A DNA stretch of 64,000 bases from Patescibacteria group bacterium (GCA_041671365.1 JBAZBP010000002.1:65052-129051); one strand, 5' to 3'. Counted from the first letter of the stretch, positions 8,641 through 47,110 are shown. Numbers and translations: made by a program. The notes: generated by a model from the letters alone, not told the origin.

Positions 8641-8761
8641 TTTTATTTCCTTTTTTTTATTTTAGTTATTATTTCTAAAGTCTTTTTTAAAACTCTAAAA
8701 ATAATAACTAAAATAAATCAGTCAAAAATAAAAATTCATTTTTAGCTATTCAATTTTTAAT

Positions 8762-8819
8762 GTACTCCCCTTTCGTCGTTTCCGACTCATCAGCCGAGAC
8801 GCACATCTCGGGAGGGAGG
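8762..8819 (-). ncRNA. Type III hammerhead self-cleaving ribozyme, copy A
   Basis: Minus sense: CCUCCCUC^CCGAGA-UGUGCG-UCUCGG-CUGAUGA-GUCG-GAAA-CGAC-GAAA-GGGGAG. The catalytic core is complete. Predicted cleavage is between 8812 and 8811. Confidence 0.85.
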
Positions 8820-8940
8820 ACAACGTTTGAACTGACGTCATCCCTCTTGAACCTACTGTTGCGGTGTTCCGCTTTTACTCGGCGAGACAGACAGCTCTGC
8901 CTCAAGGTTTATGCCCGAATCACACCTAATCTCTTCTCAA

Positions 8941-9222
8941 CTACCCGATGGTAGCTAAGAGCCACTTAATAGTGGCGCCTTCTGGCAGGGTTGTTATACC
9001 TTCCGAAAGACGAGGCCCGATATACTGGCCAACCAGAGCTTGATCGTCTTTTTTAAGGACAACAGTCGTTCTGTTTGCCGGTATCTCAACTCCTAAAACA
9101 CTACCAAATACCTTGGCGGTATCGGCGTGTCCGACTGCTGACATAGTATCAACAGCCAGGGTCTTAGCCTGCTCTAAAGAGATTTCTTCAACATGAATAT
9201 CAACCGGAAAGCTGACAAACAT
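8941..9222 (-). CDS. DUF1874-like (STIV B116 / YddF-like) small protein
   Basis: SAVGHADTAKVFGSVLGVEIPANR...DDQALVGQYIGPRLSEG fits my recollection of the DUF1874 core. The family-like N-terminus (LLNALSAN) continues in frame upstream of the ATG. Confidence 0.55.
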   Translation of the reverse strand: MFVSFPVDIHVEEISLEQAKTLAVDTMSAVGHADTAKVFGSVLGVEIPANRTTVVLKKDDQALVGQYIGPRLSEGITTLPEGATIKWLLATIG

Positions 9223-9436
9223 GTTGGCGGATAAAGCATTTAATAAAAACCTAACGCTTCTCCTCTAGAAATTATTATCTCCTCAACTTCCCCGCAGATT
9301 CACTACGGTTTATATGAGTATTTAAATTCCTAGTCTCGCTGATTTTAAAGGATAATCAGCTAACCGCTTCCGACGCAACCTAGAGTCGAAAATATATCCT
9401 GCAGAGTCCGCTGCGTTGCCAGTCAATAATACAAAA

Positions 9437-10057
9437 TTACATTTTTGTTTCGATTATCCAACTCTTATTTTTGAACGAAAGATATATTCTCTTTTGCTCA
9501 AGTTTTTTGCCAATAAATTCAGCTAAAGAATTAAGAGTCTGAATGATTTCCTCTTCTTGGCGATTTTTATCGTAATGCGGTGAAAGAATGCCGGAATATG
9601 ATACAGACGGTTCAATAGTAACTCGGGATCCGTCTTCAGTATTTCTCACCGGATAAACGAGGTTTATAGAATTGACCTTGCCGGTAAGAATCGCGAGGTG
9701 TTTATTAACCCTTCCTTGCATCCACTCCTGGATAAAACCAGTCGCGGACTCAAGAGAAAATTCACCACCATCGGCTTGGTACCCTTTGCGGAGCCCAAAC
9801 GTTACTTCAAAGTCCTTCCGATCCATGTCGGCAAGCGTTCTAAATTGCTCACCTTGGAACTGAAGACTTTGCGTCACTTTTAGCGAGGCTGAGAGAGCGA
9901 TTGTCAAGGTCACTATGCCAATAACTGGTTCTAATAAATTCCAGCCATTCAACAAGAAAATAATAACTCCGACGACTACTCCTATCGCTGCCGCCAAAAA
10001 TGTATTTTTAAATAATTTTGTGACAGCAGAAATCAAACCTTTTCTAATTTTTTTCAT
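9437..10057 (-). CDS. Membrane protein (two N-terminal TM helices plus a soluble domain)
   Basis: Hydrophobic segments AAAIGVVVGVIIFLL and VIGIVTLTIALSASL. It overlaps the upstream ORF by 14 nt, which suggests translational coupling. Confidence 0.6.
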   Translation of the reverse strand: MKKIRKGLISAVTKLFKNTFLAAAIGVVVGVIIFLLNGWNLLEPVIGIVTLTIALSASLKVTQSLQFQGEQFRTLADMDRKDFEVTFGLRKGYQADGGEFSLESATGFIQEWMQGRVNKHLAILTGKVNSINLVYPVRNTEDGSRVTIEPSVSYSGILSPHYDKNRQEEEIIQTLNSLAEFIGKKLEQKRIYLSFKNKSWIIETKM

Positions 10058-10589
10058 TTTCCTCCCCTAAAGACCAATCCAGTAGCATGGATAATTCTTG
10101 AACTTTATTTGTCCCCTTGTAGCCATGCTCGGCGGCTTCAGGGGAATTTTCAACAATTAAATTTAAGAGTCCTGCATCAGCCACTTTTTGCATAGGAAGA
10201 TCCCATGGAGCGAGATGAAAAGCCGGATGTTTTTCGATTGACAATACCACCCATCCCGAAGCATCGAATGGGGTACCTTCTTCTTTTTGCAACTGTAGAA
10301 GGGCAATTTTTTTACCTTGACGTATTAGGCCTGCAAGCAAGGCCATGGTGATAGCAAAACGCTCACCATAAGCGCCGTTCAATTTGCTTTCATAAACTTC
10401 GAAGGATTTTTGAACAGAAATTTTTTCAATCTTTGCTGATTCGCCCCATCCAGATGAATGGGTAATCGTGCCGTCTTCAGCAACCTGGGGAGCATTCACC
10501 CAGGAATAAAATCCGACGCCTTTTTTTGCAATTTCCTCTTTTACAATTGTGAAGAGGGCAGACAGTGTTTCTAATGTTAGATATTTCAT
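10044..10589 (-). CDS. Hypothetical protein (181 aa from the internal ATG)
   Basis: AAGGAGAAAAAATG lies at 10589, so I chose this start over the track start at 10637. Confidence 0.6.
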   Translation of the reverse strand: MKYLTLETLSALFTIVKEEIAKKGVGFYSWVNAPQVAEDGTITHSSGWGESAKIEKISVQKSFEVYESKLNGAYGERFAITMALLAGLIRQGKKIALLQLQKEEGTPFDASGWVVLSIEKHPAFHLAPWDLPMQKVADAGLLNLIVENSPEAAEHGYKGTNKVQELSMLLDWSLGEENEKN

Positions 10590-10663
10590 TTTTTCTCCTT
10601 GCCCGATATTACCTTCGGCGCCGAGGGATTGTTTCATAGATTATTAGTTTTTTTATTTTGAAA

Positions 10664-11458
10664 TTAAAAATACATAAATCCGCCGGGCTCCCATTTTGCC
10701 CGTAGACCTATTTTAAGGGATGGATAATTTTTTTTAACTTCGTTGATCATCCAAATTACCCCCTCAATATTTCTTGGTGGGTCAAAATCGCATCCGGCCA
10801 CGGGTTTATATAGTCGCCAGGTCCAGAATTCATTCTTCCCATCACCGCCCGCTATGATGTCCTTAGCTAATTCCAGCATATCGTCTAACGTGGTGTTGGA
10901 AAAAATCGGCGTTCTTACATCAACTAAAACTCCTGACGATGATAACAAGTCTTGAGTTTCAATAGATTTTTGGTACATCCTCTTCCCCGATCCGTTATTT
11001 AATCCAGTCCGGCTATTCATTAATGCTGCTGGCGCTTTTAAATCAATGGCTGCAGATTCTAATCCCGCGTCAACCATTTTTTTTATGAATTGAGGCGAGG
11101 AACCATTGTGAGCGATTGATAATCTGCCACCAAGCCCTTTTACTTTTTCGGCTATTAATAAACTAGCCTCCGGGTAAATGACTGGATCGCCGCCAGAAAT
11201 GCGGACGGCTTGTCGTTTTTCAACGGCTTCTTCAACTACTTTGAACAGATCTTCAATAGTGGCCGAGATGGAAGAGACGATGGAGCCGTCCGCGTTGCGG
11301 AAATTCCCATCCCTCTTGCAATATGGACAAGAAAAATTGCAGGCGCCAAAGGATATAATCCTAGCATCAACAATTTCTATGCCCATAGCCTTATAAAAAT
11401 ATAAGGGACGAATTTCTTCGCCCACTTTACCTTTATAAGGTAAGCATCTAATTTTCAT
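10664..11458 (-). CDS. Radical SAM enzyme
   Basis: CNFSCPYC (CxxxCxxC) cluster motif and ISGGDPV (GGE-like). AAGGAGAAAAAATG precedes the ATG at 11458. Confidence 0.85.
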   Translation of the reverse strand: MKIRCLPYKGKVGEEIRPLYFYKAMGIEIVDARIISFGACNFSCPYCKRDGNFRNADGSIVSSISATIEDLFKVVEEAVEKRQAVRISGGDPVIYPEASLLIAEKVKGLGGRLSIAHNGSSPQFIKKMVDAGLESAAIDLKAPAALMNSRTGLNNGSGKRMYQKSIETQDLLSSSGVLVDVRTPIFSNTTLDDMLELAKDIIAGGDGKNEFWTWRLYKPVAGCDFDPPRNIEGVIWMINEVKKNYPSLKIGLRAKWEPGGFMYF

Positions 11459-11549
11459 TTTTTCTCCTTCATTTATTGATGTTTGTCGCGACAAAACACC
11501 AATAATAAAAGACCAAATAAAAACTTTTACAATCTATTTAAATTTAAAT

Positions 11550-11608
11550 GTACTTCCCTTTCGTCCTTTCGGACTCATCAGACGGAACATTCATTCCGTG
11601 AGGGGAAG
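11550..11608 (-). ncRNA. Type III hammerhead self-cleaving ribozyme, copy B
   Basis: Minus sense: CUUCCCCUC^ACGGAA-UGAAUG-UUCCGU-CUGAUGA-GUCC-GAAA-GGAC-GAAA-GGGAAG. Predicted cleavage is between 11600 and 11599. Confidence 0.85.
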
Positions 11609-11691
11609 AGCAATGTTGAACAACATTGCTCTAGCGCCTTGAACTTCCGCTGGCGAACGCCAATTCCTCTGCGGAAAAGAAGATTTTTCAT

Positions 11692-12144: not shown

Positions 12145-13187
12145 TTCTGACTTTCTGCCCGTATAACGCTACGGAGCCGAGCATTTTTTATTATTTATTT
12201 AAAGAACTCTTCCCTCTCAAACTTAAATTTTTTCCGAGGAAATTTCTGGGCCTAAGCTTGTTCAAGGCTTAGGGCTCAGCCGATCTCCTCGTAAGAAGAC
12301 GGTGGCGTTAGTGCTGTTCCGGGAGCTTGCTCATCCGCCGGTTGGCGGATAACTGGGCCACGCCGTACTAAGATCGTCTCGGCTTTGGAACGGTTTGCGA
12401 CGTTCTTCGGCTCTAACTCACTGTCCGCCTGATTCCGAGTTAATCTCGGAAGCAAACTGTCAAACTCTTGTTAATCTCAGGAGATGAACCCTCTCCGCTT
12501 TATTGCTAAAGCTTATGTGTCCATTTAATCTCCTAAAATTGCCAAGCGGTTTAACTGATTTATTTATTCCCTAAATAATTGGGGCGACTATTCCGTAATC
12601 GTTTCGATTCCGCGAGAAGCGGATAGTTATGAAGGGGAGTTCGTCGGGCGGCGTCTAGGGGAATTTCGGGAAACGGCCTGGGGTAGCGTTTCCAAATAAT
12701 ATTTTTCCAGTCGGCCACTATTTTTATTTAGAGCTGTTCTAGGCTGTGGGCGCTAGATCGGCGACTAAATCTCTCTCCTCTTCAGGACTATCCGCTCCGT
12801 TTTCTAAACCAAAAGGGTACTAAGCGGAAAAATCTTTCTCTTTATAGAATGAGAAAGCTGAACCTGCCTAGTACCCTTTATATAAAAAGATAATAGATAT
12901 GATTATAATGGCTCTCTCCTTCCATTATTTATATTTGAATGTAATGAACTGTCTCTCGCGGAGACTGGATTCCCCTCATCTCTTATTTGTTGGGATAAGA
13001 GGAGTATCTCTCGCCGCGATGGTGATTTTGGTGCCCCATTCTTTATTCCTTATGAATTGGACCTTTCCCTAGGCTCTCTCCTCTTAAGAAACTGCCACTC
13101 TAACTCGCCAGAATATCGGACCGGGCTATATTATTGTTTAAATGAATGAACTATGTTTTGCCTCTTTCTTCCCTTTCTCATTTTCGA
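12145..13187 (-). ncRNA. About 1-kb ORF-free structured leader or large ncRNA of unknown class
   Basis: No ORF of 60 aa or more lies within 12145-13474 on either strand. The region is GC-richer than its flanks, contains many perfect hairpins, and has a promoter pointing into it. Confidence 0.5.
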
Positions 13188-13194
13188 TACCTTA

Positions 13195-13223
13195 AGTTTA
13201 GCATGGATTTAAAAGATTGTCAA
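13195..13223 (-). promoter_or_regulatory. Sigma-70-type promoter for the leader and operon
   Basis: Minus sense: TTGACA (13223-13218), 17-nt spacer, TAAACT (13200-13195). Confidence 0.55.
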
Positions 13224-26497: not shown

Positions 26498-26571
26498 GGG
26501 CCCTTAGCTCAGCTGGTTAGAGCGCCTGCTTTGCAAGCAGGAGGTCAAGGGTTCGAATCCCTTAGGGTCCA
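26498..26571 (+). tRNA. tRNA-Ala(UGC)
   Basis: Cloverleaf with a G3:U70 pair, anticodon loop cuUGCaa and T-loop GGTTCGAATCC. Confidence 0.9.
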
Positions 26572-28060
26572 CATTACGAGATTTGGGGCATTCCAAGTCT
26601 CTTTTTGTTTCTAAGATTGGCGATAATTTCGGAGTTTGAAATGTGTAAAAATTAAAAGAGGGCTTTTCCTTAAAAATCGAACTCTGAACTTTGAGTTTAG
26701 TGGCATAATTAGCCTTTTTGTAAAAGTCCGGCAGATCGCACATAAAATCAAAAACTTTATCAAGATTCTTTTTAACGTCAAAACCGTCATCTTTACAGTT
26801 AAGCAGTCTTTCCTGTTTATCGGATAGCATAATTTTCACTTTATCCATTTCTTCCCTGAAATCCTCATCATCTAATAATTCCTTTTTCTTCATCTCAATT
26901 AATTTATCTTTCTCCGCTTTCAGATTTTCCAATTGCGACTTGAGCGAACCAAAATTGCTATGTATTTCATTCTTTCTCTCATCATAAACTTCGATAATCG
27001 CTTTTTTAATGGCCTTAGCCATATAGGGCTGATAACTAATCTTTTTTAAGCCGAGCGAAAAACTATCTTCAACTTCTTTTTTAGTAATTGATTTTAACTG
27101 ACCGCATTTTTTGTTATAGCATTTATAATAAGGGTATTTAATACCCATTTTGCCGGTTGAAAAACAGGCGGTTAGTGGACTGCCGCAATGCGGACAAACC
27201 ACAAAATGCCTTAGAGGAAAACTTTCGTTAACTCGACCTAAAGAAATGCAGTCGCCCTTATCGGCGTTTCTAAATAATTTCTGACACTGCCAAAAAATAC
27301 GCTCATCAATAAATTTTTCATGACTACCGGCGTATTCTTGATTCTTAACTGTCATAATCCCGATATAGAATTTTTCTCGGAGTAATTCATGGAGTGTCTG
27401 CAAAGTTAACTCCCGGCCTTTATGCGTTCTAAACCCTTTATCATTTAACATCTTTCTAACTTGTTCGATTTGATATAAGCCGGTCGCAAACCGCTCAAAA
27501 GCTAATTTAATTAAAGGCATACGCACCTTATCAAAGATGATCACAGCCTTATTTTGATTATCTCGGGCGTTTAAATAGCCAAAGGGGGCTTTAAAACACC
27601 AAACCCCTTGTTTTATCCGTTCGTGCATACAAGAGGCGATTCTTTCGCTCCTAACATCATTATCAAATTGAGCCACCGAGGCGACAATCGTGCCGACTAA
27701 TCGACCACTTGGCGTTTCGTCAACCGTTTCCGTCGTCGATATAAACTTAATTTTAAGTTTATAGAGCAACGCCAGAATGCCGGTATAGTCATTAACATTT
27801 CGAGACAAGCGGTCGATTTTATAAACAATCACACAGTCAAGATTCTTGGCATTTTTAACACAATATTTTAGTAATTCTTTTAAACCCGGCCGTTCAATAG
27901 TTTTTGCCGACACACCGTCATCGTGGAATAGTTCGACAATTTCAATATCATGCTTGCCGGCATATTCCAAACAAGCGTTTTTCTGTTGTTCTAAACTAAC
28001 ACCGGATTGAGCCTGATCTTCAGTCGAAACCCGGTAATAGATAATTCCTTTTTTAGTCAT
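26504..28060 (-). CDS. Large serine recombinase / integrase
   Basis: IIYYRVSTEDQ catalytic-Ser region, VYKIDRLSRN, a recombinase domain, a CPHCG...YYKC zinc ribbon and a coiled coil. The last 22-23 codons run antisense through tRNA-Ala. Confidence 0.9.
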   Translation of the reverse strand: MTKKGIIYYRVSTEDQAQSGVSLEQQKNACLEYAGKHDIEIVELFHDDGVSAKTIERPGLKELLKYCVKNAKNLDCVIVYKIDRLSRNVNDYTGILALLYKLKIKFISTTETVDETPSGRLVGTIVASVAQFDNDVRSERIASCMHERIKQGVWCFKAPFGYLNARDNQNKAVIIFDKVRMPLIKLAFERFATGLYQIEQVRKMLNDKGFRTHKGRELTLQTLHELLREKFYIGIMTVKNQEYAGSHEKFIDERIFWQCQKLFRNADKGDCISLGRVNESFPLRHFVVCPHCGSPLTACFSTGKMGIKYPYYKCYNKKCGQLKSITKKEVEDSFSLGLKKISYQPYMAKAIKKAIIEVYDERKNEIHSNFGSLKSQLENLKAEKDKLIEMKKKELLDDEDFREEMDKVKIMLSDKQERLLNCKDDGFDVKKNLDKVFDFMCDLPDFYKKANYATKLKVQSSIFKEKPSFNFYTFQTPKLSPILETKRDLECPKSRNVDPKGFEPLTSCLQSRRSNQLS

Positions 28061-28250
28061 AAATTTAAAATTAATAAAAAGAGAGCAGTAAACTGTTGGA
28101 CACAATTAAGCAAACACTCAATTGAAACAGCTACTGCTCCCTTTATCTCAAAACGACATCTCGCCGTCATTATGACTTGAGTGAGTATTTGCCATATTAA
28201 TTGTGTCCATAAAAGATATTAGCATAAATTCTCTTTTTTACAAGATTAAG

Positions 28251-28403
28251 CTACATTAAGGTCGGATTAATATGGCGTTTATAATACTCAAAAGCCAAAT
28301 AAGCTAATTGATACAAATCACGGCTAACTTCCATTAATTGAGCGTCGGTATATTCCGAAGATTTCGGGCCGACAAGCTCTTTCATTTTTTCTAGTGTTAA
28401 CAT
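28251..28403 (-). CDS. Small ORF (50 aa), paralogue 1
   Basis: My own translation: MLTLEKMKELVGPKSSEYTDAQLMEVSRDLYQLAYLAFEYYKRHINPTLM. It is below the ORF-track cutoff. Confidence 0.4.
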   Translation of the reverse strand: MLTLEKMKELVGPKSSEYTDAQLMEVSRDLYQLAYLAFEYYKRHINPTLM

Positions 28404-28428
28404 ATATTTTATTGATTATTATTTATAT

Positions 28429-28578
28429 TTATTTAAATAAGTTAGGATTTTGTTGATGGATATCAAAGGCGAGATGAGCAAAGGCATAAATATCGTGCCT
28501 TATTTCTTCAAGCTCTTCATCGGAAAACCGCTTAGCACGACTTCCCAGCAGTTTTCGCAGAGCCTCTAAGCTCATCAT
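28429..28578 (-). CDS. Small ORF (49 aa), paralogue 2
   Basis: My own translation: MMSLEALRKLLGSRAKRFSDEELEEIRHDIYAFAHLAFDIHQQNPNLFK. It shares the pattern L..L.G......D..L.E...D.Y..A.LAF with paralogue 1. Confidence 0.4.
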   Translation of the reverse strand: MMSLEALRKLLGSRAKRFSDEELEEIRHDIYAFAHLAFDIHQQNPNLFK

Positions 28579-28633
28579 TCAATTCCGAAAAATGTCTGCA
28601 GAACATTTTAATTAGTGAATTAAAATGTCTTTG

Positions 28634-29488
28634 TTAAAAGACAATATCATCTATATTCAGTTTTGTATTATTCGTTATTTTTTCTGATTTATTATTTTTA
28701 ATAATTTTATCTAATTCTTCGTTGTTTATTTCGTTTATTTTATAAATAGTTTCTTTTATTTGACCTAAGCGGTCGCTATAGAACTCCCGCTCTTTAATCA
28801 GATCTAAAGAATCGGGGCTAAAGAAGTCTAAGAAATTGTCCACCTCGTCCGGGTAGTCGATTATTTCCGGTTGATTAAGGTTTTTTGAATAGAAAAATTT
28901 TCGTTTCTTAAAATATCTCGGATCAAACATTTCTTTACTTAAATATTTAGAGATATAAATACCGATATTTTTGGCGTTATTAATAGGCCTAAAATTAATA
29001 AAACCATTCTTCCAGTATTTGTCGGCAAACCATCGCTCGTATTCTTTCCGCTTATCGCCAGTTTCAAATTCCGGCAGAGGATAATTAGAAACTAAATGAT
29101 AATGAACTCTTTTTGATTGCGACTGAAATTCGGGAACGGCTAAATATTGAAAATCATTTTGGCTATAACTGATCCGCTTAATAAAGCGGTCAAAATATTT
29201 ATTGGCCGTTTTTAAATCCAATATTTCGTCTTTGAATGTCAGCGTCAAAAAAGTTTTGAGTTGCGGATTAGAATTAATTAGGCGAGTTATTTTCTGCCTG
29301 GCTCGCTTAACATTATCTTCTCTAATTTTAATCTGCTCCGATTCTAAACGAATATGCTTAAATTCTGGGCGATGAATTTTCCGATACTGTGGCCAACCGA
29401 CCCAATATGATTTCTCATAGTCAAATATCTCAATAATATTTCCGGACTTGATGATTTTTTTCTTGACCTCGTAAGGTAAACCATCCAT
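28634..29488 (-). CDS. HUH-superfamily rolling-circle replication initiator (two-Tyr type, phiX gpA-like motif III)
   Basis: Motif I FLTLTF, motif II HYHLV (HUH), motif III YISKYLSK (YxxKY). Confidence 0.75.
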   Translation of the reverse strand: MDGLPYEVKKKIIKSGNIIEIFDYEKSYWVGWPQYRKIHRPEFKHIRLESEQIKIREDNVKRARQKITRLINSNPQLKTFLTLTFKDEILDLKTANKYFDRFIKRISYSQNDFQYLAVPEFQSQSKRVHYHLVSNYPLPEFETGDKRKEYERWFADKYWKNGFINFRPINNAKNIGIYISKYLSKEMFDPRYFKKRKFFYSKNLNQPEIIDYPDEVDNFLDFFSPDSLDLIKEREFYSDRLGQIKETIYKINEINNEELDKIIKNNKSEKITNNTKLNIDDIVF

Positions 29489-29588
29489 ACGCTTTTTATT
29501 ATTGTCTTAGATTAATAACTTGTTTTTTCGACTCGTGTAATATGAGTGAATAATCAAGTTATTTATTAAGTTTTTAAAGTGCTAGCTC

Positions 29589-29702
29589 GGGCGTTAGCAG
29601 AACGCCCTCGCTTTTGTTTCTTTACACCTATTCGGCCATTCCGTTTTTCGGCCCGGCTCCCCCACGGGGGATCCGCCGGGTCCGAAAAAAACGGAAAATG
29701 GC
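29589..29702. other. GC-rich hairpins upstream of rep, putative replication origin
   Basis: gggcgtt-agcag-aacgccc (29589-29607) and a long imperfect palindrome at 29635-29702 (gccattccgtttttcggcccgg...ccgggtccgaaaaaaacggaaaatggc). Confidence 0.4.
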
Positions 29703-29796
29703 GAGAAAAGAGGGCGATATAAACAAAAAACCATAAGCTTAGTGTTTATGGTCTTATGATAACGAATTGAGTTGTAGCAATATATACCCGCTAAAA

Positions 29797-30492
29797 TTAT
29801 TTTGCTTGTCCGGTCAATTTCTTTGAATAATCAAGAAGTCTTTTAACAATTTTAGCAATATCTTGATAGCCGAGAATTTTGTCCGGGTATTTCTCGTTAA
29901 TTATTGAGGCTATTTCCTTATCTTTCTTACCGTTTTGGCGTAATTGATATATTTCCAAGTCTCGACCAACATTAACTCGTGGCGAGGCTTTTAGAGGCTT
30001 AGAATCGGATAATCTGACGACCGCCTGTCTTATTTCATTCCAATTTTTTTGTAGTTCAGTAATCGTGGTTTCCGGATTTATGCGAATGACTGTAAATTTT
30101 TCTTTGGGGTTGTTTGGATTTTCGACATTAAAGGGCAAAAGTTCCTCGGATAATCCAGAATAACCAATAATGTCTAGCTGTTCAACAAAATCTTTTAGTG
30201 AAGTTTGATAAGCCGACGACAAATGATATTTTAATCTCAAATCTGAAACGGCTTTATTATAGTTATTCGTAAACTGATGAATCTCATCTAAACTTTTTAT
30301 TTTTATTGTCGTTTTTATAGATTTAGACAAATCATCATACTCTTCCATCCCATCTCCAGCAACATATAATTTAATTATCGGGACATTTTCTCGAATGTAT
30401 TTTATATCATCCCTAAAATTTTCATTAGTCGCATAAATTATATGGAGATTTTGAAAAAGATTGGAGGACATAAAAATTTTATTTTTTACCAT
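29797..30492 (-). CDS. Hypothetical protein with a C-terminal HTH (231 aa)
   Basis: RDLEIYQLRQNGKKDKEIASIINEKYPDKILGYQDIAKIVKRL resembles a LuxR or sigma region-4 HTH. It overlaps the RloB-like gene by 14 nt. Confidence 0.5.
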   Translation of the reverse strand: MVKNKIFMSSNLFQNLHIIYATNENFRDDIKYIRENVPIIKLYVAGDGMEEYDDLSKSIKTTIKIKSLDEIHQFTNNYNKAVSDLRLKYHLSSAYQTSLKDFVEQLDIIGYSGLSEELLPFNVENPNNPKEKFTVIRINPETTITELQKNWNEIRQAVVRLSDSKPLKASPRVNVGRDLEIYQLRQNGKKDKEIASIINEKYPDKILGYQDIAKIVKRLLDYSKKLTGQAK

Positions 30493-31123
30493 CCCTAATT
30501 AACTTATTAATCTCTTCTACCAAAAAATGAATACTAGTCGACGGATTCCCTTTGGTGCTTAAATTTTTTTGCCAATTAATTTTTTTATAATCAGGCACTA
30601 TACCTTTAGCATTTTTAATCGCTTGATCTTGGAAAGGTAGAAGTATTTGAAAAATTTCTTGATTTTTTTGAAATTTACCTAACTTATTTTTCTTAAAGGC
30701 CTCGATAATTTTCTTTTCAATATCATCACCCCTACAAATTTGACAATTAAGTTTTTCAAAATGAAACAAAATCCAAAGCTCAAAACATTCATTCACGTAA
30801 GCAATCTTAATATTATTATCCATGGCATTTTTAATCGCCGATAAAAGCTTCTGGCTATCATTTTTATAAAAATCATCCACATCAAAAATGCACCAAACTT
30901 GATCGCCATCGTCATCGCAAACTTTTTCTTTCTTCCACTCTACAATTTTTCCTAATAATTCTTGCGGGGTCCAACAAATTTCTTTTCTTGGCATTAATAA
31001 AGGCGTTTCCAAATAATTTTTGAACTCTTGGAAATATTCTATCTCTGCCTTCTCTGTATGCGACCATACAAAAATCTTCGGATGAGCTTCTCGGTGTTTA
31101 GTTTTGCCTCTATACTTTGCCAT
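30479..31123 (-). CDS. RloB-like (AbiLii-like) protein
   Basis: IFVWSHTEKAEIEYF is comparable to the RloB motif vCEGekTEp.YF. It also has an IFDVDDF acidic motif. Confidence 0.65.
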   Translation of the reverse strand: MAKYRGKTKHREAHPKIFVWSHTEKAEIEYFQEFKNYLETPLLMPRKEICWTPQELLGKIVEWKKEKVCDDDGDQVWCIFDVDDFYKNDSQKLLSAIKNAMDNNIKIAYVNECFELWILFHFEKLNCQICRGDDIEKKIIEAFKKNKLGKFQKNQEIFQILLPFQDQAIKNAKGIVPDYKKINWQKNLSTKGNPSTSIHFLVEEINKLIRDGKK

Positions 31124-31124
31124 A

Positions 31125-32423
31125 TTATTTTGAAAATTTTAAGTCTTCAAAATCGGAAATATACGGCAGAGCATTATATCTTCCCTCTAAATATCTTTTA
31201 GCAAAATCCACTCCTTTTCTTTCAGAGATATCTGATAACGAGAACAATTCTGTCGCCCCCTTTTCATTTTTATCCGTAAAATAAATTTGATCTCGGCGGA
31301 GGAAATCATCACTCATAAGAGAAGTATCATGGGTAGCAAAAATTAACTGAGCATTATTTGGATTCTTGTCCTTCGAATTAAAAATTGAAATTAAGTACTG
31401 ACAAAGTATCGGATGGAGACTTGCATCAATTTCATCAATAAATAGAATTTTCCCATTATCCAGTGTATCAATTAACGGAGCGGACAAAGCAAACATATGC
31501 TGAGTACCGTTCGATTCTTCATTAAAAAAATCAAACGGCTCACTCTTTAATTCTTCTTCATTATTGCCAAATTTTTTATGTAAAAACCTAATACTACGTT
31601 CGGCTATTTTGGAATCTTCTTTAAAAAACAACTCCTTAAATTTATCCGGCATACTCTGAACCTGCTTAGCAGAAATCATTTTTTCACTAGCTTCAATATT
31701 CATTACACCGAAATCAGCTTTAACAATAAAATCTTTCATTTTTTTAGCCATACTGGGGTTATTCAAAAATTGACCGAATGAGTAATTCAAAGTATCGCCG
31801 CTATTTGCATCCAGTATTAAATTTGTATTCTTCACAAATTCAACAATTTTTTTGGATATTGGCTGATTATTACTGGAAAGGACTGACAAAAACAAAACTC
31901 GCTCGCCAGTATTATTTTTTAAAGCCGCTGATGCCTCTTGAAAATAATTCTTATTACTTTCAATTTTTTGACCCTCCCTCATAAATAAGGTTTTCTTTCC
32001 CTTTTCTTGCTTTAACCATTCCGTGCATATTTTTTTCTTGTCCATTTCAAATCCATAACTAAAAACTTCTCCATCAAGTAAAAAGGTCATTTCAAAAAAC
32101 GAAGGCTTGTTTTCAGTTTCTGAACTTAGCTTAAAATATTCATTGGGCAAATCAACTGCGACATTACTTCGGAGCAATGACTCTAAAACCATCATACGAA
32201 AAACAAAAAAAGACTTAAGAATATTACTCTTGCCGGAGGCATTCGGACCATAAATAGCCACTGATTTTAACAATGATTTTTTACCACTTTCAAAAACTGC
32301 ATTTGATTTCATTGTTTCATCACTTGTCGCACATAAATCAAGTATAACTTCATCTTTAATTGAACGAAAATTTTTAACTTTGAAAGTTAACAACATATTT
32401 TTATATATTGAATTATTATTCAC
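31125..32423 (-). CDS. AAA-family ATPase (AbiLi/RloA-like, SMC-type ABC ATPase fold)
   Basis: Walker A GPNASGKSN, Walker B LFIDEIDASLHP and QLIFATHD. Confidence 0.85.
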   Translation of the reverse strand: MNNNSIYKNMLLTFKVKNFRSIKDEVILDLCATSDETMKSNAVFESGKKSLLKSVAIYGPNASGKSNILKSFFVFRMMVLESLLRSNVAVDLPNEYFKLSSETENKPSFFEMTFLLDGEVFSYGFEMDKKKICTEWLKQEKGKKTLFMREGQKIESNKNYFQEASAALKNNTGERVLFLSVLSSNNQPISKKIVEFVKNTNLILDANSGDTLNYSFGQFLNNPSMAKKMKDFIVKADFGVMNIEASEKMISAKQVQSMPDKFKELFFKEDSKIAERSIRFLHKKFGNNEEELKSEPFDFFNEESNGTQHMFALSAPLIDTLDNGKILFIDEIDASLHPILCQYLISIFNSKDKNPNNAQLIFATHDTSLMSDDFLRRDQIYFTDKNEKGATELFSLSDISERKGVDFAKRYLEGRYNALPYISDFEDLKFSK

Positions 32424-32564
32424 AATTCAATATTAGCAAACTATTTTCCAAAAGTCAAGACTTTATGACAAATATTGTCAAAATATATATAAAAATGGAA
32501 ATATTTATCTAATTTTACCAATTTTTTGCTTAAATACTGAACATTATGACTATTAAGCCATTTT

Positions 32565-32598
32565 AAATAAAAAAGAGGGTCCTTTAATAGCGACCCTC
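32565..32598 (-). terminator. Terminator after the 329-aa orphan gene
   Basis: gagggtc...gaccctc hairpin followed by a U-run in the minus sense. Confidence 0.6.
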
Positions 32599-32622
32599 AA
32601 AAATACTTTCAATTATTTGAAC

Positions 32623-33612
32623 CTACAACACGGAAACATTTTTGTCCGGTACAAAACTGGCACGGCACTCAGGTTTCTCGTTCCACATTTTAATCACATT
32701 CTTAACAAGATTGCGGAGTTGAGGCAAAGTACCATTCATTCCCAAGACATACATCATTTTAGCTCCGGGGCGAAGTTGAAAACTCATCCAACTCATGGCA
32801 TCCTCAAGCATAACTCGATCATATCCGCACATTTCAGCACAAAGAACTTTAACCGAATCAAATAGTCCAGATGCACCACGATTATTACCTTGGTCCAGAA
32901 CATCTTTCATACCGTTAAAATAAACATCTTCCTGGAATAGCTGGCAAAGCTCGTCTAACCGACCACCGATAATCATGATATCACGATTATTGTCAAAGAA
33001 TGCTTGCATAAATGTTTTACTATCCAAGCAAAGGTTCTCTTGAATACAAGATTGACTACTAAGTTCTTTGAAACCACAATCTGGTTTAAGATAAATAATA
33101 ATGTGTACTGAACGGTCGCATAATTCTCCAAATCTTTCAGACATGTTGTCGTTTTTGGTATCTTTATGCCACGCTTCAACTGTAGCCCAAACTAAAAACT
33201 CGACTTCATCCCAAATAGGATTGGAATAACTTGTTTTGTCTCTGGTTTTCCAAAGTACTGCGTTGCCATAAATATTACCGCCAATTGCACTTCTCTCATG
33301 GTCATTACGTGGCCAATCTACACGATTAATAATTTTGCCTTTACCATTAACGGCAAAAAGATACTCGCCACGTCGCATTATTTGATCTTTGCGATTCCCT
33401 TTCATCTGAAAAATACAGGAACCGTCGCCAAGACCAGAATTTTCGGCCCGGCGATACATTAGATCTCCGTCAGCTTTTTCGACACGAATGGTTAAGTCGT
33501 CGACATTCGAACCACCATCACCGTCGAATGGTTCCATTTTTGACAATAACACATCCGACACAAAAGGATACTGTTTCAGTAATCCTTGATTCTTAGATGA
33601 ATTTGCTTTCAT
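32623..33612 (-). CDS. Hypothetical protein (329 aa), rich in Cys, Trp and Met
   Basis: Long ORF whose composition differs from its neighbours. I recognised no motif. Confidence 0.6.
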   Translation of the reverse strand: MKANSSKNQGLLKQYPFVSDVLLSKMEPFDGDGGSNVDDLTIRVEKADGDLMYRRAENSGLGDGSCIFQMKGNRKDQIMRRGEYLFAVNGKGKIINRVDWPRNDHERSAIGGNIYGNAVLWKTRDKTSYSNPIWDEVEFLVWATVEAWHKDTKNDNMSERFGELCDRSVHIIIYLKPDCGFKELSSQSCIQENLCLDSKTFMQAFFDNNRDIMIIGGRLDELCQLFQEDVYFNGMKDVLDQGNNRGASGLFDSVKVLCAEMCGYDRVMLEDAMSWMSFQLRPGAKMMYVLGMNGTLPQLRNLVKNVIKMWNEKPECRASFVPDKNVSVL

Positions 33613-33734
33613 TTTTTGTTTCTCCTATGTTCTATAGTTTTTAAAGAACCAGCGTTCCGCTAGCCCGCAAGCACCTTGCTCACGTTAAAAACGTTATCAT
33701 ACTTCACTCTTTATGTCAAGATTTAAAAACTCCG

Positions 33735-33776
33735 TCCAATACTTAATTTCCTCAATAATTTCGTCTAAAGAGTTGG
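33735..33776. repeat. Direct repeat, left copy, flanking the TA module
   Basis: tccaatacttaatttcctcaataatttcgtctaaagagttgg compared with tccaaataatttcctcaataattgagtccaaagagatgg at 35231-35269. Confidence 0.7.
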
Positions 33777-33802
33777 AAATCCGTTTTTTAACGACCACTA
33801 AT

Positions 33803-33835
33803 AAAAACAACCTAAACTGCTTTAGGTTGTTTTTA
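33803..33835. terminator. Bidirectional terminator
   Basis: acaacctaaa-ctgc-tttaggttgt flanked by A- and T-runs. Confidence 0.7.
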
Positions 33836-33943
33836 TTTATTTTGATTTGCCTAAGAGATTCGACAGCTCGCCTCGCTGCGCTACGGCGAAGCGGGCCGAA
33901 GGCCTTGATAATAATATGTTACCAAATCTATTTATGTAGATAA

Positions 33944-34297
33944 TCATATATCAAAATGCTTTTTTAAATAATCTTTAATTTTTATTACTACCTCTTTATT
34001 AATTTTTCCTATTACTTTCTCAAATCTCGCATAATCGAAAGACGTTACGCAATATACTTTAGCTAATGAATCAGACATTAAATTATTTTCTTTGCAAGCT
34101 TCCACTAAAATATCATCGGGCATACGATTGTCTTTTTGCGAGGTAAGAGGAATTATAGTAATCAAATTCGTCTTTTTTAATTGTTCATCTGATTGCACGA
34201 CAATTGCCGGTCTTTTACTTTGATATTCGTGCCCAACACTAGGATCAAATTCAACCCAAACAACATCGCCGAAGCTAATCTCGCCTTTCGTCATCAT
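33944..34297 (-). CDS. MazF/PemK-family toxin (endoribonuclease)
   Basis: GDVVWVEFDPSVGHEYQSKRPAIVVQSD and IIPLTSQ. Confidence 0.85.
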   Translation of the reverse strand: MMTKGEISFGDVVWVEFDPSVGHEYQSKRPAIVVQSDEQLKKTNLITIIPLTSQKDNRMPDDILVEACKENNLMSDSLAKVYCVTSFDYARFEKVIGKINKEVVIKIKDYLKKHFDI

Positions 34298-35139
34298 AGA
34301 TTTTCGTAATAATCGTATTCCGTTTTAGAAATAGAGCCTAATTGATTTAATATGTCTTTAGCTCCTGTTATTTTAAAACATCGCAAATCATCAATGCCTC
34401 TTTTGGCATAAGGCGTTTGACGTTCAAAGACAAGGTTATACGGAATGACTTCTTTGTCGCCGGTTAATTGCCAAGGGGCATCGCCATGCGAATATTCTTC
34501 TATCTGAGCAGCAGACATATTAGAAAGAGATCCTATAACATCATCAATAATTTTTGTTTCCTTAGGGCGCAAAGAGTCAATATTATGCCCAATTAAATTA
34601 ATATAGCGTTTTATTTTTAAACCGAAATAATCAGAAATAATAATTTTGAGTTCTTGATTAGACTTCATCGCTTCGATAACCGGTAAATATTGCATGGCTG
34701 CTGGTGCCGGGCCATATTGCAGATGAATATAGTCTAAACCGGAGATTGATTGATTATTGATTTCAAAATTATCAAAATCAATAAAATATAATAATTTATA
34801 CAACACGGTTTCTCCGACGTTTGGTTTACCGGCACATTTTTCTAAAATATACAAAATAACATTTTTTAATTTTTTTGGATCAAAATTATTAACTTTTTTT
34901 TGATTCTTAGTCAATTCAATATTCGGCAACTCATCTTCAATTAAAAAATAATCAGTTTTCAATTTAAATACTTCAGCTATTTTGGCCAACTCTAAAAAAT
35001 CAACGTTTCTATTGCCTTGCTCGATTTGTGATATAGCGACTCTTGATAGGCCGATTTTTTGAGCTAAATCTTCTTGGCTCATGTCATCAAACTCTCTTAA
35101 AGCCTTAATTTTATTGCCCAAAGATTGTTTATTAATCAT
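34294..35139 (-). CDS. XRE-HTH plus DUF4065 (Panacea/SocA-like) antitoxin
   Basis: N-terminal LGNKIKALREFDDMSQEDLAQKIGLSRVAISQIEQG, followed by LYILEKCAGKPNVGETVLYKLLYFIDF. It overlaps the toxin gene by 4 nt. Confidence 0.8.
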   Translation of the reverse strand: MINKQSLGNKIKALREFDDMSQEDLAQKIGLSRVAISQIEQGNRNVDFLELAKIAEVFKLKTDYFLIEDELPNIELTKNQKKVNNFDPKKLKNVILYILEKCAGKPNVGETVLYKLLYFIDFDNFEINNQSISGLDYIHLQYGPAPAAMQYLPVIEAMKSNQELKIIISDYFGLKIKRYINLIGHNIDSLRPKETKIIDDVIGSLSNMSAAQIEEYSHGDAPWQLTGDKEVIPYNLVFERQTPYAKRGIDDLRCFKITGAKDILNQLGSISKTEYDYYENL

Positions 35140-46449: not shown

Positions 46450-46523
46450 GGGCAATTAGCTCAGTTGGTTAGAGCGCAACACTGATAATGTTGAGGTCGG
46501 TGGTTCGAGTCCACCATTGCCCA
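46450..46523 (+). tRNA. tRNA-Ile(GAU)
   Basis: Cloverleaf with anticodon loop cuGAUaa. Confidence 0.9.
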
Positions 46524-46557
46524 CTTTATTCGTCTGACAATAGATTAATAATATTAT

Positions 46558-46630
46558 AGCGGGGTAGAGCAGTTGGCAGCTCGCTAGGCCCATAACCTAG
46601 AGGTCGTCGGTTCGAATCCGACCCCCGCAA
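46558..46630 (+). tRNA. tRNA-Met(CAU), initiator-like
   Basis: Close to E. coli tRNA-fMet (GCGGGGU.GAGCAG...GGUCGUCGGUUCGAAUCCGACCCCCGCAA). It has a 1:72 mismatch (A:A) and the anticodon loop ccCAUaa, which has C at position 33. Confidence 0.8.
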
Positions 46631-46654
46631 CTAGTTTAACAATAGAATTTTCAT

Positions 46655-46973
46655 GCCTCGGTAGCTCAGTGGTAGAGCAAAGGACTGATTTTCGGTCCGC
46701 TTCATGGAAACATGGAGATGAAAATCGGGTGAATTCGGGGAAGCCTAAGGCCGCTGGTAGCGGCTATGGTAATCCCGAGCCAAGCCTTAATTGGGATAAA
46801 AAATTAAGGAAGGCGTAGAGACTAGCGGGTGAGCCCAACAATAACCCCGCCTAAGAGCGCCCGACTCCGTACTTAAGAGTATTAAGCGGAGATGAGATAG
46901 TCCAATCCTTGGGGAAACTCAAGCCAAAACAAGGAAAATCCTTGTGTCGTCAGTTCGATTCTGACCCGGGGCA
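46655..46973 (+). tRNA. tRNA-Phe(GAA) interrupted by a group I intron (exons 46655-46686 and 46934-46973)
   Basis: The joined exons give GCCUCGGUAGCUCAGUGGUAGAGCAAAGGACU|GAAAAUCCUUGUGUCGUCAGUUCGAUUCUGACCCGGGGCA, which resembles E. coli tRNA-Phe. Confidence 0.85.
46687..46933 (+). ncRNA. Group I intron (IC3-like, 247 nt, no ORF)
   Basis: AAUUCGGGGAAGCCUAAGG...UAUGGUAAUCCCGAGCCAAGCC and GGAAGGCGUAGAGACUAGCGGG...CCUAAG match the Azoarcus/cyanobacterial tRNA intron core. P1 pairs exon GGACU with intron GGUCC, with a U:G at the splice site. The intron ends in G. Confidence 0.85.
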
Positions 46974-47035
46974 CAAAAGTAAAAAACAAAATTAAATCTA
47001 TATTATACAGCCCTAACCGGGTTTAATTTTTATAA

Positions 47036-47110
47036 CGGGGTGTGGCCCAGTTGGTCTAAGGCGTCTGGTTTGGGACCAGAAGATCGAGAGTTCAAATCTC
47101 TCCACCCCGA
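47036..47110 (+). tRNA. tRNA-Pro(UGG)
   Basis: Cloverleaf with anticodon loop uuUGGga. Confidence 0.85.

Follow-up and report, generated by a model that had tools for sequence, protein, structure and literature searches.

Introduction

Hammerhead ribozymes clustered around variable blocks of genes are a known kind of bacterial system, described in 2011. Such clusters cleave native polycistronic fragments of ~2 kb in vitro and in E. coli, and the genes that they flank are not constant, one of them being the anti-restriction gene ardA (Perreault 2011; PMC3088659). The role currently proposed for bacterial hammerheads is to process polycistronic RNA, and a 2019 review lists it as unproven (PMC6765202). 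Here we analyze a 64,000-nt stretch of metagenomic DNA from an uncultured Patescibacteria group bacterium (GCA_041671365.1, JBAZBP010000002.1:65052-129051; hereafter the window), on whose minus strand two predicted type III hammerheads, copy B (11550..11608) and copy A (8762..8819), bracket a radical SAM gene (rSAM), two genes for proteins of 181 and 206 aa, and a DUF1874-like gene.

The locus resembles the clusters of 2011 (PMC3088659) in that the hammerheads are spaced by a few kb within intergenic regions, have the orientation of the genes, flank inconstant genes and invite the same proposed role. Those clusters flanked one anti-defence gene, ardA; the corresponding gene here is the DUF1874 gene, of the AcrIII-1/Crn2 ring-nuclease family. 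Unlike the clusters of 2011, the locus is chromosomal and lies between housekeeping genes; the prophage or integrase context that was typical there, if not strictly defining, is not found here. In further contrast, every copy of the present family is of type III and has, flush on its 5′ side, a hairpin with GUUCAA in its loop (HP0), together with a second GUUCAA, a combination undescribed in PMC3088659.

Retrozymes and viroid-like RNAs (PMC4918200, PMC7229834) offer a second comparison, since here too two direct hammerhead repeats bound a segment with predicted 5′-OH and 2′,3′-cyclic phosphate ends. The bounded segment, however, consists of 2.8 kb of ordinary protein genes in a bacterial chromosome; unlike the repeats of retrozymes, the two ribozymes are old paralogues that share 63% identity and are not LTR-like (long terminal repeat), and a self-ligating hybrid of the two is not conserved in relatives.

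In synthetic insulators of the RiboJ type, a hammerhead placed between units removes the upstream RNA and leaves the downstream gene with a defined, structured 5′-OH end. RiboJ is engineered and has its accessory hairpin 3′ of the ribozyme, unlike the element described here, which is natural and has its accessory hairpin 5′, on the upstream product.

A last comparison concerns the DUF1874 gene itself. The ‘DUF1874 motif’ of Weinberg 2017 is a multi-stem RNA with a conserved internal loop, which occurs in the 5′ untranslated regions (UTRs) of DUF1874 genes and in consecutive intergenic regions (RNA-ORF-RNA-ORF, where ORF is open reading frame) with no integrase at the start of the array, and for which an attC-like role has been raised (PMC5737381). 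A related locus, L005, in which two structured RNAs that we call motif L and motif X are arranged as L-109aa-X-L-DUF1874-X, fits the description of that arrangement (PMC5737381). It differs from it in that no hammerheads were reported there and in that motifs L and X have no Rfam 15 match. As to an integron-like array, we find no integrase beside the array in the window or in six syntenic loci, and the junctions carry a ribozyme core, not simple imperfect hairpins. New here are thus the host lineage, the variable-array context outside a prophage, the conserved GUUCAA hairpin module, and several undescribed structured RNAs alongside; a literature search found no paper linking hammerheads with Patescibacteria (candidate phyla radiation, CPR).

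Results

Both copies read 5′ to 3′ on the minus strand, with the predicted cut marked by a caret. Copy B is CUUCCCCUC^ACGGAA-UGAAUG-UUCCGU-CUGAUGA-GUCC-GAAA-GGAC-GAAA-GGGAAG and would be cut after C17 at 11600 (11600|11599); copy A is CCUCCCUC^CCGAGA-UGUGCG-UCUCGG-CUGAUGA-GUCG-GAAA-CGAC-GAAA-GGGGAG and would be cut after C17 at 8812 (8812|8811). A first-pass annotation, made from the sequence of the window, had given these sequences and coordinates, which on re-reading of the minus strand are exact, and had stated that both copies possess every core nucleotide, as indeed they do (C3-A9, G12-A14, A15.1-U16.1, and C at H17). The pairs that flank the core are standard, with C-G in copy A and A-U in copy B at 1.1-2.1, G-C at 10.1-11.1 and A-U at 15.1-16.1. 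The hammerhead three-way junction is the minimum free energy (MFE) structure of both 58-59-nt RNAs (-22.5 and -20.6 kcal/mol, z = -2.5 and -2.8), with stems I and II closed by loops and stem III open, and RNAalifold also predicts it independently.

Both strands of the window (128 kb) were scanned for the core pattern CTGATGAG-N3-GAAA-N3-CGAAA. With at most one mismatch allowed, copies A and B are the only matches, and dinucleotide-preserving shuffles of the window yield 0.00 per shuffle (n=100). A family-specific covariance model built from 15 copies (R1) assigns 102.6 bits to copy A (8763-8857) and 77.6 bits to copy B (11551-11649), with no other match in the window. Rfam's type III model RF00008 matches copy B and, locally, copy A. 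The two share with RF00008 the same core, the open-stem-III topology, the G10.1-C11.1 pair and GUC/GAC in stem II; they differ from it in having six base pairs and a UGYGUR loop in stem I, four base pairs and a GAAA loop in stem II, 4-5 bp in stem III, and HP0 as a module foreign to RF00008. Copy A is 90.5% identical to a copy in one related locus (L014@3169) and 63% identical to copy B, which is itself 81% identical to another copy of the same locus (L014@5649). Because the identities to the L014 copies exceed that between A and B, the two are best seen as old paralogues, each kept across genomes.

Further copies were gathered by an exact-pattern scan (core plus stem II) and by protein-guided retrieval of related loci. 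The pattern scan returned copies in metagenome-assembled genomes (MAGs) of Patescibacteria and Saccharibacteria and in metagenomes; four further copies lie on contigs not of Patescibacteria type, two of them Gammaproteobacteria MAGs. One copy (L028), which sits after another DUF1874 gene, was missed by the pattern and recovered by R1. When the 22 copies, most of them from Patescibacteria, are aligned to the family model, 96.9% of cells are paired; none of 500 shuffles reaches the observed level of covariation, and slid controls pair 35-51%. The collecting pattern dictated the first three pairs of stem II and of stem III, which are uninformative; stem I lay outside the pattern. The first-pass annotation had taken the differences between copies A and B as the mark of a maintained RNA structure, not a chance match, and the family upholds this view, with compensatory changes in 18 of 23 pairs across the 22 copies and in all six pairs of stem I in a plain, structure-blind MAFFT alignment of 21 copies. 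Among the 22 copies the core does not vary, and the base at the cleavage site varies within H only, being C, or A in L021.

Placement is equally uniform. All 22 copies are intergenic, lie on the same strand as both neighboring ORFs and are nearer the upstream stop codon, relative to which they start between -9 and about +275 nt. They also cluster, with two copies 2.8 kb apart in the window, three within 3.5 kb in L014, and pairs in L008, L013, L018, L021 and L026. Judged by sequence, predicted fold and covariation, both sites in the window are bona fide type III hammerheads.

HP0 is present in every family copy, as a hairpin of ~7-11 bp that ends 0-1 nt before the stem III 5′ arm. In copy B (HP0-B, 11607..11632, minus strand) it is a 10-bp hairpin, AGAGCAAUGU-(UGUUCA)-ACAUUGCUCU, flush with the stem III 5′ arm and carrying GUUCAA in its loop; in copy A (HP0-A, 8817..8844, minus strand) it reads GGGAUGACGU-(CAGUUCAA)-ACGUUGUCCU. 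RNAalifold predicts HP0 unguided, with covariation at 8 of 8 modelled pairs. In copies from Patescibacteria, (C)AGUUCAA(A) persists in the loop as the stem varies, and 0-8 nt separate the hairpin from a second GUUCAAR upstream. In the window, this second element is a single-stranded GUUCAAG at 11638..11644 upstream of copy B and at 8846..8852 upstream of copy A (both minus strand), each within a conserved block of alignment columns. The base of HP0-A can alternatively pair GAGGGA with UCCCUC, which sequesters the stem III 5′ arm in the MFE structure of a 139-nt context.

The homologous 5′ flank of 70-90 nt that the first-pass annotation had described is shorter than stated. About 45 nt are common to the two copies, comprising GUUCAAG and the GUUCAA-loop hairpin, and AGCGGAA is not a family feature, belonging in copy A to motif X and in copy B to an unrelated flank conserved with L014@5606. 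On the 3′ side, an A/U-rich tail, UACAUUAAAAAUUGAAUAGCUA, follows copy A (8740..8761, minus strand) and has its copy B counterpart at 11530-11549. The 3′ similarity noticed between the two copies extends to the family, across which the tail ACAUUAAAAA..AAUAG recurs; in L021 and L027 the tail is found even without a hammerhead. Two interpretations of the GUUCAA element were considered and set aside. A tRNA-like or T-arm reading of the hairpin fails because the G is unpaired to a C61 equivalent and the loops measure 7-10 nt, and pairing of GUUCAA with UUGAAU of the 3′ tail would work in copy A and L021 but neither in copy B nor in most other copies.

The predicted cuts bound 11599..8812, a segment of 2,788 nt that holds exactly four genes; recomputation returned the same cut positions, span and gene content as the first-pass annotation had given. 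The locus itself recurs in at least seven genomes, where a large unknown protein, a divergent TrmB-type regulator and a long non-coding leader precede a same-strand array that runs toward a CDF transporter and FtsK, and the gene content of the array differs among them. The four-gene block, for which a search in related genomes had been suggested, does not behave as a functional unit, since rSAM-181-206 occurs in three other arrangements among close relatives. L002 and L005 have rSAM-181-206 without a hammerhead and with the DUF1874 gene upstream of rSAM, a position that is only probable in L002, whose contig carries just the 3′ end of the gene and motif X. In L021, a hammerhead 3′ remnant is all that precedes rSAM; a live copy stands right after the 207-aa gene, and another hammerhead follows two unrelated genes, one of them weakly DHH-like. 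The third arrangement is that of L008, where two hammerheads flank an unrelated 112-aa gene.

Elsewhere the array is divided differently again. Three hammerheads in L022 set apart a lone DUF1874 module and a 573+131-aa block, with a MoxR gene after the third. Two hammerheads in L026 surround a homologue of the 282-aa gene of the window and three other genes, and a pair in L023 lies just upstream of ftsK. The L-DUF1874-X module follows the 206-aa gene in the window, precedes rSAM in L005 (probably also in L002), and stands by itself between two hammerheads in L022. Synteny breaks fall at or near the ribozymes, with homology to L026 beginning at 8832, within HP0-A; homology to L022 stopping at 11534 and 8755, just past each hammerhead; and homology to L021 beginning at 11563, within copy B, where L021 retains only the 3′ remnant. 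The 150-aa ORF upstream of copy B has no homology to the ORF of 131 aa that precedes the orthologous copy in L022. Hammerhead 3′ remnants without a core (GAGAGGGAAGAGUUCUUUAAA; GAAGGGGAAGUACGUUAAAAAUUGAAUAG) occur at 12198-12218 in the window (minus strand), starting at the 3′ end of the leader hairpin element described below, and at 2154-2200 in L021, starting ~20 nt past that element. These coreless remnants indicate that hammerhead copies decay or recombine.

The first gene between the hammerheads is the radical SAM gene (10664..11458, minus strand; 264 aa; PF04055, E = 2.5e-14). The best named match of its product is NrdG2-like; NrdG2-, MoaA- and viperin-like matches fall far below curated cut-offs, and there is a weak pVip match. 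A perfect palindrome in its 5′ UTR, TGTCGCGACA (11484-11493, minus strand), is kept in L002 and L005, is degenerate in L021, and could be an operator or an RNA hairpin. The second gene (10044..10589, minus strand) encodes a 181-aa protein with no assigned function, which we characterized by its homologues and an AF2 model. It has no Pfam, NCBIfam or PADLOC match; its 25 homologues are all metagenomic, one of them from a named Patescibacteria; and a Foldseek search of the model (pLDDT 84) against the PDB returned nothing at E <= 0.001. The third gene (9437..10057, minus strand) encodes a predicted membrane protein of 206 aa and adjoins the 181-aa gene also in L002, L005 and L021.

The fourth is the DUF1874/STIV_B116-like gene (8941..9222, minus strand; 93 aa), which matches PF08960 (E = 3.9e-11), Csx16 in PADLOC, and PDB entries 2j6b, 2x4i, 6scf and 2j85; the family includes the AcrIII-1 / Crn2 ring nucleases. 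The upstream ATG of its relatives is AGG here, and the start at 9222 lies ~35 nt after an RBS-like (ribosome-binding site) GGAGAAG; owing to the loss of that ATG, the protein would have 93 aa, not 103 aa. Homologues of 58-60% identity (L029, L030, L031) lie on a phage-like contig with many small ORFs and on a plasmid-like contig with Rep3, ParA and ParB, and these loci are without motif L, motif X or a hammerhead. Among other proteins flanked by hammerheads, we noted a weak Csx3 match (L022 6500-8221, E = 0.009) and a DHH match just below cut-off (L021 5049-5927, 26.6 bits). With DUF1874, these matches hint, very tentatively, at a theme of nucleotide-signal degradation among the cassettes.

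Several further RNAs accompany the hammerheads. Motif L (9255..9422, minus strand) is a multi-stem leader RNA of ~168 nt that ends at the RBS of the DUF1874 gene; 23 of its 42 predicted pairs are compensatory in five sequences, and five of its six copies precede DUF1874 genes, the sixth, in L005, preceding an unrelated gene of 109 aa. We regard motif L as a candidate riboswitch or cis-regulator and possibly as the published ‘DUF1874 motif’. Motif X (8848..8942, minus strand) directly follows the DUF1874 stop codon and abuts the GUUCAAG of copy A. It has three stems, P1 (AUYCGG/CCGRAU), P2 (with a GCUG loop) and P3 (GCGG-NNCA-CCGC), and eight matches in six loci at 91-106 bits, with 97% paired as against 36-49% in slid controls; sometimes motif L follows it directly, and sometimes a hammerhead. 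A further conserved and apparently structured non-coding stretch of ~170-300 nt, region Y, which contains UUCCCAAAAAUCUAUGGGAG...GUAUCCAGGG...ACACUGGAGCC, comes after motif X at L002 320-600, L005 4480-4750 and L028 7366-7530 and does not occur in the window.

Between the TrmB gene and the array lies an ORF-poor leader of ~750 nt (about 12190-12960, minus strand), which is 85% identical to its counterparts in L022 and L026, a value above that of the adjacent coding DNA. This leader, a candidate large non-coding RNA, has indels of lengths not divisible by three, hairpins that covary, and four repeats of the GGAGAGAG type (about 13075, 12925, 12785, 12490). At its 3′ end, upstream of the first hammerhead, stands a hairpin element (AGH; 12216..12298, minus strand) whose stem covaries around an invariant loop, CUUGAACAA. 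Within this loop, UUGAAC is exactly complementary to the GUUCAA found at the hammerheads. A model of the element (R3) finds it once, at 88-102 bits, in each hammerhead locus whose upstream region is covered (7 of 7) and never in the examined loci without hammerheads. The element could be a kissing-loop partner of GUUCAA, as the complementarity suggests, or it could be a functionless flipped palindrome of the HP0 type. For motifs L and X and the leader RNAs, Rfam 15 offers no matching family, even when a 601-nt stretch is searched at E <= 10, and searches of the flanks and relatives for twister, pistol, hatchet, HDV or other known RNAs gave nothing at E <= 10.

The surroundings of the array are those of a chromosome, with Mur ligase, FtsK, RuvC, YebC and glycogen synthase around the locus; its neighbors include TrmB, APH, GH57, a CDF transporter, FtsK and Mur ligase. 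Neither an integrase nor phage genes adjoin the array in the window, and the six syntenic loci likewise have no integrase beside it. A prophage origin was considered and rejected, as the region and two family patterns remained unmatched in a phage genome collection and in IMG/VR viral contigs. At a distance from the array, a likely integrated element (26498-35139) lies beside a tRNA gene (26498-26571) and encodes a large serine recombinase (26504-28105), a Rep ORF2/G2P-like protein, an RloB + AAA_21 (AbiEii/OLD-like) pair and a SocA/Panacea antitoxin-HTH protein. Farther on (46450-47110, plus strand), three tRNA genes surround a group I intron (46677-46924, 76.9 bits) that is inside no called tRNA.

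Discussion

We consider it probable, at roughly 0.6, that functional type III hammerheads cut, co-transcriptionally, the long polycistronic RNA of a variable array that lies between a TrmB-family regulator and housekeeping genes. The ribozyme motif, its covariation, its placement and its recurrence are seen directly; catalysis in vivo, a single long transcript and end protection by HP0 are steps that we infer from the sequence. Transcription would begin at a promoter near 13195, where a sigma-70-like candidate (TTGACA-17-TG-TAAACT, 13195..13223, minus strand; a consensus match only) is placed to yield a long transcript carrying both hammerheads, and would read through the array without intrinsic terminators; no terminator-like sites were found on the minus strand in the intergenic gaps from 12144 to 8640. 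At each junction HP0 would be the first element to fold, followed by stem I, the CUGAUGA core and stem II; the GAAA-GGGAAG strand would then complete a stem III of 4-5 bp, and the RNA would self-cleave after C17. Because the ribozyme is of type III, the upstream product would retain only HP0 and CCCUC with a 2′,3′-cyclic phosphate, that is, a hairpin-capped 3′ end, and the downstream fragment would start with a 5′-OH, its 5′ end capped by the folded ribozyme body of ~50 nt. With the long transcript split in this way, the stability and translation of its segments could differ, one such segment in the window being the 2,788-nt rSAM-181-206-DUF1874 RNA.

Several observations weigh against processing by these hammerheads. 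The Rfam check proposed by the first-pass annotation succeeds weakly for copy B (39.2 bits, E = 5.7e-5 over the whole window, under the gathering score of 48.5) and not for copy A, which gives an 18-bit local match only (E = 2.8). A scan at the gathering threshold accordingly reported no hammerhead in the window, the matches emerging only in E-value mode. The L008 copies depart from RF00008 in the same manner (35.7 and 29.2 vs 48.5 bits), and we attribute the low scores to the make-up of the Rfam seed, as no defining nucleotide is missing. Stem III is short and imperfect in both copies; in copy A, a G-U pair is followed by a C-A mismatch (or a bulged G). The hammerhead-free loci L002 and L005 carry the same genes, so that processing appears dispensable for rSAM-181-206. 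A promoter-like TTGACT-16-TATTTT at 8725-8698, between copy A and the next gene, means that the gene after copy A may not need processing. Simple end-capping does not explain why the GUUCAA loops are invariant or why a complementary loop exists in the leader.

An explanation at the DNA level would treat the hammerheads and motifs L and X as the borders of mobile cassettes, acting at least partly as portable sites of homology or recombination. The array would then resemble an integron lacking its integrase, and RNA cutting would be needed only since the cassettes are promoterless; this view is compatible with RNA processing. It draws on the synteny breaks at 8832 (L026), 11534 and 8755 (L022) and 11563 (L021), on the different genes held by the same locus in at least seven genomes, on the differing array positions of the L-DUF1874-X module, and on the attC-like role that Weinberg 2017 proposed for the ‘DUF1874 motif’ in consecutive intergenic regions. 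However, no integrase stands beside the array, where the divergent gene is a TrmB-type regulator, and 13 invariant unpaired core nucleotides fit RNA catalysis and not a DNA hairpin site. The frequent G-U pairs in the helices make the structure strand-specific, contrary to a role of the DNA, and breaks at the sole conserved intergenic sequence are partly expected from the way BLAST alignments end. We regard this explanation as unlikely, though the two roles could coexist.

A broader proposal makes the hammerheads one component of an RNA-defined cassette system of Patescibacteria, in which a promoter-proximal structured leader of ~750 nt would be followed by promoterless accessory-gene cassettes, with borders made of structured RNAs, namely motif L on the 5′ side, motif X on the 3′ side, and the GUUCAA hairpin with its hammerhead. 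The UUGAAC of the leader would pair with the GUUCAA loops of every junction and so coordinate or gate cutting, the repeated junction elements would double as an integrase-free recombination substrate, and motif L, standing before a homologue of cyclic-oligoadenylate ring nucleases, could represent a new riboswitch or a further ribozyme class. That all of this should hold together seems to us quite unlikely.

Regulation of the ribozymes might also be imagined without such a system. Cleavage would be switched either by HP0 extending over the stem III 5′ arm or by an RNA partner, the leader loop CUUGAACAA kissing the GUUCAA loop or the single-stranded GUUCAAG and thereby coupling processing of the array to the state of the leader. 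The first mechanism is suggested by the GAGGGA-UCCCUC pairing that abolishes stem III in the 139-nt MFE structure of copy A, but this sequestering fold is confined to HP0 of the GAGGGAUG type and does not form in the GAGCA type, to which copy B belongs. For the second speak the GUUCAA loop, retained despite covariation at all eight pairs of the HP0 stem, and the complementary leader hairpin with its covarying stem, present in all seven covered hammerhead loci and in none without hammerheads. Against it, the complementarity spans 6-7 A/U-rich nucleotides and is weak, phylogeny confounds the co-occurrence (L005 has a TrmB of only 31% identity), and a flipped palindrome would give a complementary loop devoid of function. 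On this evidence, regulated cleavage appears distinctly unlikely.

Circularization, which the first-pass annotation had itself flagged as speculation, gained no support. The 2,788-nt fragment would be ligated by RtcB or by a hybrid hammerhead composed of the copy A 5′ arm and the copy B body, and its 5′-OH and 2′,3′-cyclic phosphate ends would be chemically right by definition. The copy A 5′ arm (CCUCCCUC) can form five contiguous pairs with the copy B 3′ arm (A-GGGAAG), and the arms are compatible also in L013, L014 and L021; in L008 (CAGGG with UUUCCUC) and L018 (GGGAAA with UCGGUC), by contrast, neighboring arms are incompatible, and a hybrid ribozyme is thus not a conserved feature. The position of the DUF1874 gene, last in the window and before rSAM in L005 (probably also L002), resembles a circular permutation, but the L-DUF1874-X module moves as a unit and so accounts for the apparent change of order. 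Circular or spliced products of clustered bacterial hammerheads were sought in 2011, and none were found (PMC3088659). No RtcB is encoded among the scanned proteins of the window, a weak point given that these cover only part of the genome. We judge a circular RNA very unlikely.

That the motifs are relics of a spreading element whose cleavage has been lost, as the 3′ remnants in L021 and at about 12218-12198 in the window and the imperfect stem III helices of both copies might suggest, is hardly credible against an intact core in 22 of 22 copies, compensatory changes in all helices, and the conservation of copies A and B each as an orthologue in another genome.

Co-transcriptional processing of a variable array thus remains our preferred reading. 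The role of genomic bacterial hammerheads is still open (PMC6765202), and the locus provides a compact test case outside a prophage, with numerous copies, orthologues that can be traced between genomes, and gain, loss and decay at identifiable gene junctions. It extends hammerheads to Patescibacteria (CPR), and the conserved accessory hairpin, with its candidate RNA partner, goes beyond what simple self-cleavage explains. At least three unannotated structured RNAs beside a gene of the ring-nuclease family are candidates for new regulatory or catalytic RNA classes, and the discovery of pistol, hatchet and twister-sister beside known ribozymes offers a parallel for finding such classes here.

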